A stretch of 64,000 bases of DNA, taken from assembly GCF_003334385.1 (NCBI RefSeq), contig NZ_QOWN01000003.1. One strand, 5' to 3'. A program made the translations under genes and the position numbers. Of this stretch, positions 1,174 through 9,671 are shown piece after piece. How positions within the stretch are numbered: position 1 is the stretch's first letter; each line of letters starts with the position of its first letter. Origin of the DNA: Escherichia coli (lineage in GTDB: Bacteria > Pseudomonadota > Gammaproteobacteria > Enterobacterales > Enterobacteriaceae). The notes under the pieces are model-generated. The model was not told where the DNA came from and did no database searches. It worked only from the letters and a program-made list of their open reading frames with translations.

Positions 1174-2199
1174 TCAGGAATGTAGCGCTGGATGCGTGAC
1201 AAAAGGTGTTTTCTGTTTGTGTTTTTTCTCCTGATACATCGCAATATCGGCAGCATGCAGGGCACTGTCTGCATCGGTTGTTTCAGGATCGACTTCTACT
1301 ATGCCAAGACTGGCACCGGGATAATACAAATCAACATCACCTAAGTGATATTCTCCACGTATTTGCTGCTGAATGCGTTCTCGCAGCGACGAAATATCCG
1401 CATTCTCGTTGTTTAGTGAAACAACTAAAAACTCATCACTGCCGAGACGACCAATAACTTCGCCATTTTGCTGGAGCGTATTAAGGCGCTCGCCAACCTG
1501 AATGAGAAACAGATCGCCACTATTATGACCAAAACGATCATTGATTAATTTGAAGTTATCCAGATCGATAAACGCGATCATTATCTTATGGTTAAGATGC
1601 CGGGCGAGGGAAAACAGTGTCGTCAGATTTTCAAAAATCGCCCGCCGATTCGGTAGCCCGGTTAACGAGTCGGTATACGATTGCGCAATCAGCGCAGCAT
1701 TGGCTTCGCGCAGCTGTTCAACCAGTGCCTCTTTTTGAATATATTGTGCAATCAGTCCGGCGAATAACTGTAAAACCTGTTCCGCGCGTTCACTCCACTG
1801 GCGCTTCTCACTGCTGGCGGCGCAAAGCGTGCCATAGAATGATCCATCCGGTAAGTGAATTGGCGTGCTCAGAAATGTGGTGATGCCAAGATTGCGTGCC
1901 GCAATACAGTCACCCCAACGGTCGGGGACTTCATCGCTGAAAAAGCAGTTTTCATCAATGGCGCGTTTGCATAACGAGTAATCCCACGAGACGGTAAAAT
2001 TCTCCGGGATGTACATTTTCTGGCTGTTACGGGCAAACATAATATGCTGCAGGCGCGCTTCGACATCCACTTTGGTCAGGTAGGTTGATTCCATATCAGT
2101 GACCATTTCCAGCATCTCCAGAAGCTGTCGGACCAGACTTTCCAGTGACTGTTCTTTGGCAAGGGATTGCGAGACGCGGGCGATAATCTGATCTGACAC
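1174..2199 (-). CDS. yeaP: GAF-GGDEF diguanylate cyclase (DgcP/YeaP)
   Basis: ORF with GGDEF-domain signature (...GHNSGDLFLIQVGERL...GRLGSDEF...); longest ORF extends to 2328, but the GTG at 2199 gives the 341-aa product (MSDQIIARVSQ...) expected for YeaP. Confidence 0.8.
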   Translation of the reverse strand: MSDQIIARVSQSLAKEQSLESLVRQLLEMLEMVTDMESTYLTKVDVEARLQHIMFARNSQKMYIPENFTVSWDYSLCKRAIDENCFFSDEVPDRWGDCIAARNLGITTFLSTPIHLPDGSFYGTLCAASSEKRQWSERAEQVLQLFAGLIAQYIQKEALVEQLREANAALIAQSYTDSLTGLPNRRAIFENLTTLFSLARHLNHKIMIAFIDLDNFKLINDRFGHNSGDLFLIQVGERLNTLQQNGEVIGRLGSDEFLVVSLNNENADISSLRERIQQQIRGEYHLGDVDLYYPGASLGIVEVDPETTDADSALHAADIAMYQEKKHKQKTPFVTHPALHS

Positions 2200-6382: not shown

Positions 6383-7873
6383 TCATGAACGGCTGTTTTT
6401 GTTCTGCTTATTGACATATAAACGCTCATCGGAAGCTTTATACGCATCATGTAACGTATCGTTTTCTTTCATCGCGTAAATACCGGAAGAGAAGCCGATC
6501 TCTTTCTGCGGCGCGATATGTTGCAGACGTTTTTCGATACGTTCAGGCAGTTGTGCTGCAATTTGCGGCGTCGAATCGACAAGAATGATGCAGAATTCAT
6601 CGCCACCGAGTCGGATGGCATAATCACTTTTACGAATCGACTGTTTAATCGCCTGAGCTAATAACGTAATCGCTAAATCCCCCTCCTGATGACCGAGGGT
6701 GTCATTTATTTGCTTTAACTTGTCCATGTCAATAGCAATAAACATCACCGAAGAACCGGATTGCACCAGTTTCTGCAACCGCTGCTCCAGTTCAGGGGTT
6801 AAAATTTTGCGATTATACAGTCCAGTCATCGCATCACTAATATTTTCTCGCGACACATTTTGGTATAAACGGAAGTGCATCCGCACCATATTCAGCAAAA
6901 TTAACGCCGTCAAAATCCAGAACAGAACGCTTTTCCACGAAGACGTGATAAAGTAAAGAATATCAATGGATAACGAGACACGAATGCCGCCCGGTAAGTC
7001 ATGGACGTAACTGACATACTGGAACAGATTATCTTCGCTCTGGTTGATGATAATGTCGCGCCCCGAATCGGTATCGGTTAGCGTGACATTGAGAAAACGC
7101 CAGAGGAGAGGGCGGTCATGAGTATAAAAGATATTCCGCAGATTGTTTTTGTTAATATCCAGCAGCACAATCCCTTTTAGCTGCCCTGCGACATATACCG
7201 GCGTCAGCAAACTCATCACGTTCTGTTTAGTACGCTGATCCTGGTAAATGCTCGACAATACGGTACGCCCGGTAAATACCTTTTCAATATCTTTGCGATC
7301 GATGCCAATACTTCCTGACTGCAGGAAGGACCAGTTATTCATCGCAAAGTATTCAACATTAACCGGCTCATAAAAATAGACATAGCGGTCATTGAGATCG
7401 AGATAATAGTGAAATTTCTCTTCGGCCATCCCAAGACCTGAACCGTAATCATCCTGGTGGCGGTTACCTTCCACTGCCTGATCAAAAGCGGGTAATAGTG
7501 CTGCAGCTTCCACAATTGTGTCGCAGTCAGTGGATGCGGTTTGTAGTGTGCCGCGTAAGCCCGGGTATTTATGGGCAGTCAGGTTTAAGCCATGGGTGTT
7601 ATTGGCAGACTCAAAAGCCTCGCAGATGGCGCGCCGCTGTTCTGGCGACACTTCCGACTGCTCAGCAGCGAGAGCGCGCATCACATGCGCGGCAATACTC
7701 TGATTCTGATACTTATCATAAAGAAAGGAGGAGTCTGCTTTCTGCACGATATAGCGCAGATAGGCACTCATTGCTCTGTCGCTGGCGACAAGTTCAAAAA
7801 TAAGGAAGGAAGATGTCAGCACAATGACACTTGCGGCGATAAAATGCCGGAGCATTCTATGGTGCAATTTCAT
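6383..7873 (-). CDS. yeaJ: membrane-anchored GGDEF diguanylate cyclase DgcJ/YeaJ
   Basis: C-terminal GGDEF domain with canonical RLGGDEF; longest ORF starts at 8053, but the ATG at 7873 (MKLHHRMLRHFIAASVIVL...) gives the expected 496-aa product with an N-terminal TM helix. Confidence 0.85.
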   Translation of the reverse strand: MKLHHRMLRHFIAASVIVLTSSFLIFELVASDRAMSAYLRYIVQKADSSFLYDKYQNQSIAAHVMRALAAEQSEVSPEQRRAICEAFESANNTHGLNLTAHKYPGLRGTLQTASTDCDTIVEAAALLPAFDQAVEGNRHQDDYGSGLGMAEEKFHYYLDLNDRYVYFYEPVNVEYFAMNNWSFLQSGSIGIDRKDIEKVFTGRTVLSSIYQDQRTKQNVMSLLTPVYVAGQLKGIVLLDINKNNLRNIFYTHDRPLLWRFLNVTLTDTDSGRDIIINQSEDNLFQYVSYVHDLPGGIRVSLSIDILYFITSSWKSVLFWILTALILLNMVRMHFRLYQNVSRENISDAMTGLYNRKILTPELEQRLQKLVQSGSSVMFIAIDMDKLKQINDTLGHQEGDLAITLLAQAIKQSIRKSDYAIRLGGDEFCIILVDSTPQIAAQLPERIEKRLQHIAPQKEIGFSSGIYAMKENDTLHDAYKASDERLYVNKQNKNSRS

Positions 7874-8053
7874 GATAAATGGCACTCCTTCGGTTAGTGA
7901 AACGAGAAAACCAGATAAAGTTCGATTGCGGCCTGGCACAGGGGCGCTAATTATACTCATCTCTGCGCCGCTGGGGAGGGGAAATTTAGGGGTAATAGTA
8001 ATAAATTGTATGCAAAAGCCACGCAAAAAGCATGGCTCTGAATATTTTTGCAC

Positions 8054-9529
8054 TTAAATATGATGAATAATCACTTTGTTGCCCCCCTCGCTTTTCGCTT
8101 CGCGTAAGGCTTTATCTGCTTCCGTCATGACAAGCGAGATATTACGCGTGTCACCCGTTGAAAAAACCGTGCCAATACTGATGGTCATTTGTTCAGGAAC
8201 ATCATATCTGTTACTAAAGCCGGTCAGGAGTTCGACATTTTTACGCATACGTTCCGCAATGATTTTTGCCTGGGCACTATTGAGTTCGGTAAATAGCAAG
8301 CCAAACACCTCACCCTCCAGTCGCGCTAAAATATCATCGGGGCGGATGCTTTGCTGGATAATATCGACAATTGAAACCAGCACTTTATCACCCACACGAT
8401 GTCCCCATTGGGCATTGATGCGTTTGAACTGATTAATATCAACCAGCATGACACAGAAGTCCTTAACAACAGGTCGCGACAATAATGACTCTACGCTGTT
8501 GAAAAAGTAGCGCCGATTATAAATATTGGTCAGCACATCATGAACTGCCAGTTTGCTGGAGAGTTGCAGCTCCTGAAAAATGTTATAAATCAGAAAAGAC
8601 ACAACAAACAGTTTACTGGAAACTTCAATCCCGCGACTGATATACCAGATAGTATAATTATACTCATCCAGAGTCAGTAGAAGTAAGTTGCAGCATAGCG
8701 ATGCCAGACATAATAATGCTATTAACGGCCATAGTTCGCTGGCTAATCGTGTGCGCATGATAATAAAGAACAGTAAAAATGCCCACAGACAAACCAATAT
8801 TTTTGTATAGTTGATTCCCCAGGTCGCAGTATGGTTGTCCGGACAGTAATCGACGACATACAAAGAATAGTCAGCGTTATAACTGCTCAGATTGTGTGCC
8901 AGAAGGGGAAAAACTAAAAAAGGGATCAGCGCCAGCAACAGGATTCCCGTTTTTTTCTTATTGTTGTCAAGGATGTTGTCTTTTCCATAACAAAAGAGCG
9001 CCAGCGAGGTTAAACAAATAAAACTGAGTTGGCGGAAAATATAGAAAATAGAAACATCATTCGACTTTGTCTGGATCAGTGTACTGCCGTTAATTGGTTT
9101 ATGGATAATTACAATGGTTTCAACTAAATAGATAAGGCCACTTAAAAATGCAAGGCTTAAAATGAGTGTTGGTAAAATTTGTTTGTTAGTGAAATATTTC
9201 ATTAACATGAAAAGAAAAATGACGGCGTTAAGGAAAAACAAAGCCACAACAACCATCAGGTAATTCATCTGTGGGATGAGTTTTACATTTGTGTTTTCGT
9301 TATATAAGGTAGTAATGCAAAATAAAATTAACGTCAGCAATAAACTGAAAATAAAAAAGCTTTGAGCTTTTAATTTTTGTGTACCCATAGAAACCATAAA
9401 AAGGAGAGCAATGTGAGTGCTGGATTTTATTGATGGCAGAGATATATAGTTTTGACCAGGATCAATTTTCGTTAACGATAAAAAATATTTAAAGAATAAC
9501 CCCATGGAAATACGTGTTGACTGAATCAT
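8054..9529 (-). CDS. yeaI: membrane GGDEF-domain protein CdgI/YeaI with degenerate active-site motif
   Basis: 491-aa ORF, multi-TM N-terminus, C-terminal GGDEF domain whose motif reads EGEVF (catalytically degenerate). Confidence 0.85.
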   Translation of the reverse strand: MIQSTRISMGLFFKYFLSLTKIDPGQNYISLPSIKSSTHIALLFMVSMGTQKLKAQSFFIFSLLLTLILFCITTLYNENTNVKLIPQMNYLMVVVALFFLNAVIFLFMLMKYFTNKQILPTLILSLAFLSGLIYLVETIVIIHKPINGSTLIQTKSNDVSIFYIFRQLSFICLTSLALFCYGKDNILDNNKKKTGILLLALIPFLVFPLLAHNLSSYNADYSLYVVDYCPDNHTATWGINYTKILVCLWAFLLFFIIMRTRLASELWPLIALLCLASLCCNLLLLTLDEYNYTIWYISRGIEVSSKLFVVSFLIYNIFQELQLSSKLAVHDVLTNIYNRRYFFNSVESLLSRPVVKDFCVMLVDINQFKRINAQWGHRVGDKVLVSIVDIIQQSIRPDDILARLEGEVFGLLFTELNSAQAKIIAERMRKNVELLTGFSNRYDVPEQMTISIGTVFSTGDTRNISLVMTEADKALREAKSEGGNKVIIHHI

Positions 9530-9637: not shown

Positions 9638-9671
9638 TAAAAATCAGCCAGGCGATAATGACCTGGCTGAT
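9638..9671 (-). terminator. rho-independent terminator downstream of yeaH
   Basis: Stem atcagccagg (9643-9652) / cctggctgat (9662-9671); on the minus strand the hairpin is followed by a T-run (A-run 9638-9642 on plus). Confidence 0.5.

Follow-up and report, generated by a model that had tools for sequence, protein, structure and literature searches.

The adjoining genes cdgI (yeaI) and dgcJ (yeaJ) of E. coli are, very probably, two independent and already characterised members of the c-di-GMP network that are neighbours by happenstance. They lie in the window analysed here, a stretch of 64,000 nucleotides whose K-12 counterpart is the 1.816-1.880 Mb region of MG1655, in reverse orientation, with 24 SNPs and no indel over 63.9 kb. 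It is neither K-12 itself nor strain VTB97420v, as about 10 SNPs over 13-20 kb separate it from each of them. Gene identity, domains, motifs, synteny and selection were established in this analysis, and c-di-GMP binding, lack of expression and autoinducer-2 (AI-2) sensing are taken from the literature.

Both genes are carried by the minus strand, with yeaI upstream of yeaJ and a spacer of 180 bp between them. The original prediction had called yeaI the gene next to yeaJ, which is correct as to their adjoining, but not as to their order. As annotated in K-12, cdgI encodes 491 aa (8054..9529, minus strand), and dgcJ, read from the ATG at 7873, encodes 496 aa (6383..7873, minus strand). The two proteins are 100% identical to K-12 CdgI (YeaI, b1785) and DgcJ (YeaJ, b1786), gene order and spacing are the same, and a single synonymous SNP (window position 7466), with no difference at the protein level, distinguishes the dgcJ sequences. 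A 556-aa open reading frame starting at a GTG (6383-8053) was discarded as yeaJ, being a mechanical over-extension, while the ATG at 7873 gives the K-12 protein. In other Escherichia, codons 1 to 44-47 of cdgI are unconserved or have no open frame, and Met48 (9388) is the probable conserved start. Directly 3′ of the yeaH stop, a terminator-like hairpin with an 11 bp stem and a T-run (9643..9671, minus strand, from the consensus scan and the sequence) is predicted to set the yeaGH operon apart from cdgI.

CdgI has the MASE4-then-GGDEF architecture of the DgcT/DgcX/CdgI family. The integral-membrane sensor domain MASE4 (aa 88-319, 8573..9268, minus strand; Pfam PF17158, E=1.4e-48) is followed by a GGDEF domain (aa 328-485, 8075..8548, minus strand; Pfam PF00990, E=1.3e-44), which matches solved GGDEF domains with E values down to 1.5e-21. 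The EGEVF that had been noticed at the GGDEF-equivalent position of yeaI was indeed found there: this degenerate A-site (aa 405-409, 8303..8317, minus strand) aligns column for column with the GGEEF of solved cyclases, and corresponds to G368-F372 of PleD. CdgI was not filed as a cyclase because EGEVF stands where the GG(D/E)EF signature aligns. The I-site RPDD (aa 396-399, 8333..8344, minus strand), which precedes the A-site position by five residues, is intact and corresponds to PleD R359-D362. Alignment over the full length of the domain with the reference diguanylate cyclase, Caulobacter PleD (PDB 1W25, E=2.7e-18), showed that CdgI has equivalents of D327, K332, N335, H340, D344, R359, D362, R366, G369, E370, F372 and K442, but differs by G368E, E371V, Y439R, R446G, D329N and D336A.

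That EGEVF marks an inactive A-site and that CdgI binds c-di-GMP, as had been predicted, is already published and is not new. Sarenko et al. 2017 (PMC5635695) described the A-site as degenerate and the I-site as intact, and found that the purified GGDEF domain binds c-di-GMP (their Fig. S4B); Cimdins-Ahne 2023 (PMC10459773) termed CdgI catalytically non-functional. To this, the alignment adds the other losses listed above. A full-text literature search for “EGEVF” found nothing. Caulobacter PopA and Pseudomonas PelD are degenerate GGDEF receptors that bind c-di-GMP via the I-site. Like CdgI, they have a non-catalytic GGDEF fold with RxxD and bind c-di-GMP, but their N-terminal domains and outputs differ, and the comparison stands at the level of the GGDEF fold.

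It nevertheless had to be considered whether CdgI is still a weak diguanylate cyclase in spite of its EGEVF, and adds to the c-di-GMP pool. Spurbeck et al. 2012 listed YeaI with ‘verified diguanylate cyclase activity’, and reported that the cyclase WspR complements a yeaI deletion in no-salt LB, but not in glycerol medium. Deletion of yeaI also raises motility and early biofilm, according to Sanchez-Torres 2011 as cited by later papers. The listing and the WspR complementation make residual or indirect effects of CdgI on c-di-GMP conceivable, and the equivalents of D327, K332, N335, D344, E370 and K442 are all retained in the protein. However, the signature has lost Gly at its first and Glu at its fourth position, and the Y439 and R446 equivalents are gone likewise. 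Across Escherichia CdgI proteins the A-site reads EGEVF, EGDVF, EGEEF, DGEVF, EGNVF or EGKRF, with free variation at positions 370 (E/D/N/K) and 371 (V/E/R), which fits a site no longer serving catalysis. The later papers (PMC5635695, PMC10459773) also treat the protein as non-catalytic, and we consider a residual cyclase highly unlikely.

In DgcJ, a GAPES1 domain (aa 31-304, 6962..7783, minus strand; Pfam PF17155, E=7.8e-151) precedes the GGDEF domain (aa 346-494; PF00990, E=6.1e-40), and the protein scored 747.7 bits with the NCBIfam equivalog DgcJ, for a cut-off of 500. The RLGGDEF announced for yeaJ was recovered within the Pfam GGDEF domain, as an intact GGDEF A-site at aa 423-427 preceded by RL (6593..6607, minus strand, from alignment to PleD). 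Since the motifs of CdgI and DgcJ both sit in bona fide domains, they are not chance strings. The I-site of DgcJ is RKSD (6623-6634, minus strand), and its A-site segment RKSDYAIRLGGDEF is invariant among 9 orthologues. Together with the GG(D/E)EF signature, DgcJ holds all of the PleD ligand equivalents D327, N335, D344, E370, E371 and K442. The R446 equivalent is N in DgcJ, and Q in the active DgcP.

Sensing of AI-2 by YeaJ is likewise in the literature and not new. In Salmonella and EHEC O157:H7, its GAPES1 domain was reported to bind AI-2 and the protein to be an AI-2-stimulated cyclase, Y210 and D239 being necessary for AI-2 binding; for the Salmonella orthologue, c-di-GMP synthesis was also reported (Li et al. 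2022, PMC9637222). A check against Salmonella YeaJ showed that DgcJ keeps both Y210 and D239. The Salmonella Typhimurium protein is 68% identical to DgcJ, and has in common with it the GAPES1 and GGDEF domains, RKSDYAIRLGGDEF, these two residues and the yeaGH-to-yeaK context. Salmonella Typhimurium differs by having no cdgI between yeaH and yeaJ, and upstream regulatory DNA unrelated to that of E. coli dgcJ. By analogy with the Salmonella and EHEC proteins, rather than from this exact allele, DgcJ would be an active inner-membrane diguanylate cyclase whose periplasmic GAPES1 domain senses AI-2, upon which c-di-GMP would rise.

The original prediction went further, and took a cyclase beside a degenerate paralogue to be a recurring arrangement for local c-di-GMP signalling. 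This proposal found no support. The adjacent pairs that we noticed within E. coli associate a cyclase with an EAL phosphodiesterase (dosC-dosP, pdeI-dgcI), not with a degenerate GGDEF protein. By a rough estimate, with 19 of some 4,300 genes encoding GGDEF proteins, an adjacent GGDEF pair would arise by chance in ∼8% of genomes. CdgI and DgcJ are, moreover, not close paralogues. The identity of their GGDEF domains is 23%, among the lowest paralogue values for CdgI, compared to 45% with DgcT, its nearest K-12 paralogue, and their N-terminal domains are unrelated; a tandem duplication was therefore rejected. DgcT (YcdT) and DgcX combine MASE4 and GGDEF as CdgI does, and DgcT has the same RPDD I-site, but they are active cyclases with GGEEF, Y439 and R446, where CdgI has EGEVF, R and G.

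The distribution of the two genes also speaks against a functional pair. DgcJ orthologues are present in many Enterobacterales genera, whereas those of CdgI turned up in Escherichia and a few Citrobacter-like genomes only. The distant ones came from a protein search; a contig scan with CdgI peptide patterns gave 5 Escherichia loci only, because such patterns do not extend beyond close relatives. In Salmonella and C. freundii, dgcJ lies between yeaH and yeaK without cdgI, functional and conserved, so that the two genes do not co-occur as a module would. No cdgI remnant was detected in the yeaH-yeaJ spacer of these genomes, tblastn matches being to the GGDEF domain of yeaJ itself. On the other side, all the examined genomes that have cdgI (E. 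coli, cryptic clades, E. whittamii, E. fergusonii and Citrobacter sp. Awk 4-like) keep it adjacent to dgcJ. The syntenic Citrobacter-like cdgI orthologues, however, have GGEEF and all catalytic residues. Adjacency is therefore older than the degeneration of CdgI, and the starting point was two apparently intact cyclases.

The Escherichia cdgI genes do not appear to have been left to decay. The RxxD of the I-site is kept in 16 of the 17 CdgI-type orthologues examined at the yeaH-dgcJ locus, the exception reading HPDD. The dN/dS ratio is 0.10-0.13 for cdgI (0.07-0.10 for the GGDEF part) and 0.02-0.04 for dgcJ; with a value of about 0.1, cdgI is still under purifying selection. This selection, as well as A-site drift and I-site retention, is among the modest additions of the present work. 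It also bears on whether cdgI could be a decaying, functionless relic, tolerated because it is silent. The absence of detectable protein under laboratory conditions would agree with a relic, as would a dN/dS 3 to 4 times that of dgcJ, the IS1 insertions, deletions and cdgI-dgcJ fusions found in some strains, and the absence of the gene from Shigella flexneri. But the dN/dS is far under neutrality, GGDEF domain included, the open reading frame is intact in five Escherichia lineages with the I-site conserved in all but one, cdgI was reported in 61 of 61 E. coli genomes surveyed, and a specific activator, SrsR, targets it (PMC9181523). Among the alternatives, we regard this as the least credible. 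Our preferred reading, of two independent genes, is that cdgI is a sister of dgcT/dgcX rather than of dgcJ, that it stood beside dgcJ while its GGEEF was still intact, and that the A-site was lost in the Escherichia lineage, the gene being under purifying selection since.

The spacer between the two genes points in the same direction. Directly 3′ of the cdgI stop lies a conserved stem-loop followed by UUUUG (8016..8038, minus strand; MFE -19.4 kcal/mol, z=-4.15), with 95% of cells paired and compensatory changes in 5 of its 9 pairs (7 species). We read it as terminator-like, or possibly as a 3′-end stabiliser. Further downstream, TGAGTATAATTAG (7947..7959, minus strand, from the cross-species alignment) contains a perfect TATAAT (7950-7955), which precedes the ATG of dgcJ by 76 nt. 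Within it, TGAGTATAATT is identical at each of the 7 loci in the alignment, which range from E. coli to Citrobacter, in a spacer otherwise 77%-identical, while the two trailing bases vary. This TATAAT is a candidate -10 element of a dgcJ promoter. Hairpin and TATAAT were detected by cross-species alignment only: a consensus promoter and terminator scan gave no excess over shuffled sequence except for the yeaH terminator, called no strong terminator between cdgI and dgcJ, and missed the TATAAT because a -35 match is absent. The covarying hairpin and the invariant TATAAT suggest that cdgI and dgcJ are separate transcription units.

Expression data do not bring the two proteins together either. 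CdgI was undetectable under standard conditions, where 25 of 29 GGDEF/EAL proteins, DgcJ included, were quantifiable; cdgI is listed among CsrA-repressed genes, and is toxic when overproduced (PMC5635695). A spontaneous cdgI-dgcJ' deletion had a minor phenotype only, and a literature search returned no report of interaction or epistasis between CdgI and DgcJ. There are nonetheless arguments for c-di-GMP made by DgcJ being read by CdgI, or fed back through it, for instance by c-di-GMP-dependent binding to the GGDEF domain of DgcJ. Besides the conserved adjacency and the binding of c-di-GMP by CdgI, a span of 8.4 kb holds three GGDEF genes (cdgI, dgcJ and dgcP), and PMC5635695 describes two-hybrid contacts of the CdgI GGDEF domain with several other GGDEF domains, among which DgcJ may or may not be. 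Weighed against the separate distribution, the age of the adjacency, the distant relationship of the proteins, the spacer and the expression data, such a local pair appears improbable.

The third gene, dgcP (yeaP), is a case apart. It encodes a 341-aa protein with GAF and GGDEF domains (1174..2199, minus strand). The GSDEF that had been noticed in it, at a distance given as about 5 kb, is present in this window (aa 253-257), but the distance from the end of yeaJ is 4.2 kb, and GSDEF is a strain allele. K-12 dgcP has GGDEF, and relative to it the protein carries G254S (codon AGT, 1438-1440) as well as A335T. A 61-mer with the Ser codon had an exact match in 1 of the 5,288 complete genomes that gave a match, and the exact protein was found on 4 contigs in a 15-billion-protein collection. 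GSDEF is therefore a rare allele, and not the normal E. coli sequence. As a natural variant, G254S could probe the importance of the second glycine of the signature.

With both cdgI and dgcJ being named and catalogued members of the K-12 c-di-GMP network, their pairing carries little weight as a discovery. What CdgI does can be proposed as follows. It is a GGDEF protein anchored by MASE4 whose catalysis has very probably been lost, through EGEVF and the missing Y439 and R446 equivalents, and as the RxxD I-site is retained, c-di-GMP is bound and not made. Its output is most likely that of a receptor or effector, and a possible route is the formation of heteromers with other GGDEF domains in the rare conditions where it is expressed (relieved CsrA repression, activation by SrsR). 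A bolder version, which we hold to be unlikely, is that CdgI is an Escherichia-specific, neofunctionalised cyclase, acting as a c-di-GMP-gated dominant-negative partner of GGDEF proteins, possibly of DgcJ, and braking AI-2-driven synthesis. The Citrobacter orthologue of cdgI offers a natural “still-active” control for tests of CdgI function. If the brake were real, it would constitute a feedback on AI-2-driven c-di-GMP synthesis when CsrA repression is lifted.

Both genes of interest lie on the minus strand, dgcJ (yeaJ, b1786) at 6383-7873 and cdgI (yeaI, b1785) at 8054-9529, and both are covered by the coordinates of the original prediction. The window was found to be collinear, in reverse orientation, with positions ~1,815,914-1,879,837 of K-12 MG1655, with 24 SNPs and no indels over 77-64000, and its CdgI and DgcJ proteins are identical in sequence to their K-12 counterparts. 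The window begins inside the end of an IS4-family element present in multiple copies (positions 1-76), which is annotated as IS421 in strain UMNK88 and resembles IS186. It sits in yeaR (junction 76/77, remainder of the gene at ~77-325), which is split relative to K-12, and several further E. coli genomes share this very junction.

A 556-aa ORF with a GTG start (6383-8053) was discarded as dgcJ, being a mechanical extension: K-12 annotation and sequence place the start at the ATG at 7873. Pfam domains are MASE4 (E=1.4e-48) and GGDEF (E=1.3e-44) for CdgI, GAPES1 (E=7.8e-151) and GGDEF (E=6.1e-40) for DgcJ. DgcJ matches an NCBIfam equivalog (747.7 bits, cut-off 500), and the generic GGDEF domain model was the sole NCBIfam match on CdgI. 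Since the N-terminal 44-47 residues annotated in K-12 (cdgI codons 1-47, 9389-9529) are not conserved in other Escherichia lineages, where this stretch has no Met, an in-frame stop, or a start equivalent to Met45/Met48 (MGTQK), translation probably begins at Met48 (window 9388), which would make the protein ~444 aa long.

Motifs were placed by alignment to solved GGDEF domains and to PleD, whose sequence was confirmed against PDB 1W25, 2WB4 and 9G85. At the position of PleD G368-F372, CdgI has EGEVF (aa 405-409, window 8303-8317) and DgcJ has GGDEF; the original prediction, which had set these two motifs at equivalent positions, was therefore right. CdgI further differs from PleD at D329 (N), D336 (A), Y439 (R) and R446 (G), and retains the equivalents of D327, K332, N335, H340, D344, R366, E370 and K442. 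Its I-site, RPDD, is intact, five residues upstream of the A-site; that of DgcJ is RKSD. The proposal that YeaI is catalytically inactive and a c-di-GMP receptor is correct as well, but was published before (Sarenko et al., PMC5635695; Cimdins-Ahne et al., PMC10459773), and its EGEVF motif was already tabulated by Spurbeck et al. in 2012 (PMC3484386).

Rescue of a yeaI deletion by WspR in one medium (Spurbeck 2012, PMC3484386) could alternatively mean that CdgI keeps some residual cyclase activity. This is unlikely, because several catalytic residues are lost and the A-site drifts among orthologues: in Escherichia CdgI sequences position 368 is always E or D and position 446 always G, positions 370/371 vary across the genus (EGEVF, EGDVF, EGEEF, DGEVF, EGNVF), and a 64%-identical metagenomic relative carries EGKRF. 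The I-site, for its part, is retained in all CdgI sequences but one. This exception, at 7001-8473 of locus L012 (Escherichia sp. MOD1-EC7003), is an orthologue 97% identical to that of the window with HPDD for RPDD, and from its sequence might have lost c-di-GMP binding. Sanchez-Torres et al. reportedly observed in 2011 that E407A, within EGEVF, abolished the YeaI effect. If so, the degenerate site would still matter structurally or for nucleotide binding.

No supporting evidence was obtained for the further claim that the neighbours form a dedicated local cyclase-receptor pair, and paralogy, co-occurrence and order of events speak against it, as transcription signals may do too. Among the GGDEF domains of the K-12 proteins compared, that of CdgI is 45% identical to DgcT and 23% to DgcJ, one of its lowest values, which rules out tandem duplication. 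DgcJ has orthologues in Salmonella, Citrobacter, Klebsiella, Kluyvera, Buttiauxella, Hafnia, Lelliottia, Enterobacter and further genera, and our orthologue searches returned CdgI only from Escherichia (coli, albertii, fergusonii, whittamii and cryptic clades) and from a small number of Citrobacter-like genomes. The dgcJ genes of Salmonella and C. freundii are immediately flanked by yeaH and yeaK, and neither cdgI nor a remnant of it occurs between yeaH and dgcJ. Citrobacter sp. Awk 4-like genomes have, between yeaH and dgcJ, a syntenic MASE4-GGDEF gene whose product is 57-62% identical to CdgI, with GGEEF, Y439, R446 and all other catalytic residues present. The adjacency is thus older than the degeneration, having already existed while both genes carried intact catalytic motifs. 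The other adjacent c-di-GMP pairs seen in E. coli, dosC-dosP and pdeI-dgcI, combine a cyclase with an EAL phosphodiesterase, not with a degenerate GGDEF protein. Our literature search found no report of cdgI-dgcJ interaction or epistasis, and spontaneous deletion of cdgI-dgcJ' had little effect (PMC8117528).

As to transcription signals, a strong terminator-like hairpin lies 3' of yeaH (9643-9671), and a stem-loop (8016-8038; -19.4 kcal/mol, z=-4.15) directly follows the cdgI stop codon. Across seven species, 95% of cells in the latter are paired, with compensatory changes in 5 of the 9 pairs, making it a candidate terminator or 3' stabiliser. The segment TGAGTATAATT (7947-7959), which carries a perfect TATAAT and lies 76 nt 5' of the dgcJ start codon, is invariant, the remaining spacer being 77% identical, and is a candidate -10 element of a dgcJ promoter; it is kept, like the stem-loop, from E. 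coli to the Citrobacter-like genomes. The hairpins and the invariant TATAAT, together with the different protein levels of CdgI and DgcJ, suggest that dgcJ may have its own promoter. CdgI is undetectable under standard conditions, is toxic upon overproduction, and its gene is among those listed as CsrA-repressed (Sarenko et al., PMC5635695). cdgI is activated by SrsR/YgfI, which binds in the spacer between yeaH and cdgI (PMC9181523).

Nei-Gojobori dN/dS values, computed for the window against three other Escherichia lineages, were 0.10-0.13 for cdgI (MASE4 part 0.09-0.10, GGDEF part 0.07-0.10), 0.02-0.04 for dgcJ, about 0.03 for yeaK and below 0.01 for yeaH. cdgI, with its degenerate domain, clearly evolves under purifying selection and is more relaxed than its neighbours. 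This selection, the conserved I-site and the reported presence of cdgI in all 61 E. coli genomes of the Povolotsky and Hengge survey, as cited in PMC5635171, argue against a decaying relic. Compared with L025 (E. fergusonii) and L020, the window shows DgcJ and CdgI diverging much faster than the adjacent genes: its DgcJ and CdgI are 67% and 78% identical to those of E. fergusonii, and the adjoining YeaH 97%. This points to fast evolution or to allelic replacement of both sensor genes. Some E. coli strains encode in-frame CdgI-DgcJ fusions (P0026, P0035), deletions having joined the MASE4 N-terminus to GAPES1-GGDEF, and others carry IS1 insertions in the cdgI-dgcJ region; rearrangement seems to recur at this locus.

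The GSDEF motif noted for yeaP (dgcP; 1174-2199, minus strand, GAF and GGDEF) is indeed present in the window (codons 253-257, 1429-1443; Ser codon AGT at 1438-1440), but departs from the usual E. coli sequence: DgcP of K-12 has GGDEF, the two proteins differing by G254S and A335T. An exact match to 61 bases around the Ser codon as the centre was found in only one of the 5,288 complete E. coli genomes with a match, chicken isolate VTB97420v, a different strain from the one that yielded the window, and just 4 contigs in a collection of 15 billion proteins encode the exact protein. GSDEF is a rare natural allele in DgcP. The only paper found to mention a GSDEF cyclase describes the site as "imperfect" yet able to bring about a c-di-GMP phenotype once an activating mutation is present (PMC4395868); G254S possibly reduces cyclase activity.

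Salmonella YeaJ and its EHEC orthologue sense autoinducer-2 via GAPES1, in which Y210 and D239 are key (Li et al. 2022, PMC9637222); both residues are present in the window DgcJ, which is most likely a membrane cyclase responsive to AI-2. CdgI is most likely a MASE4-anchored, non-catalytic receptor binding c-di-GMP via its I-site. In two-hybrid assays its GGDEF domain shows strong heteromeric contacts with those of several other proteins (Sarenko et al., PMC5635695), and the best current hypothesis for its output, which is Sarenko's, is that c-di-GMP would modulate such heteromerisation. The motifs and the biochemistry of the two proteins are already known; what is gained here is the evolutionary order, in which adjacency came first and degeneration followed in the Escherichia lineage only, along with estimates of selection, a conserved hairpin and candidate -10 element between the genes, and the finding that GSDEF is rare in dgcP.
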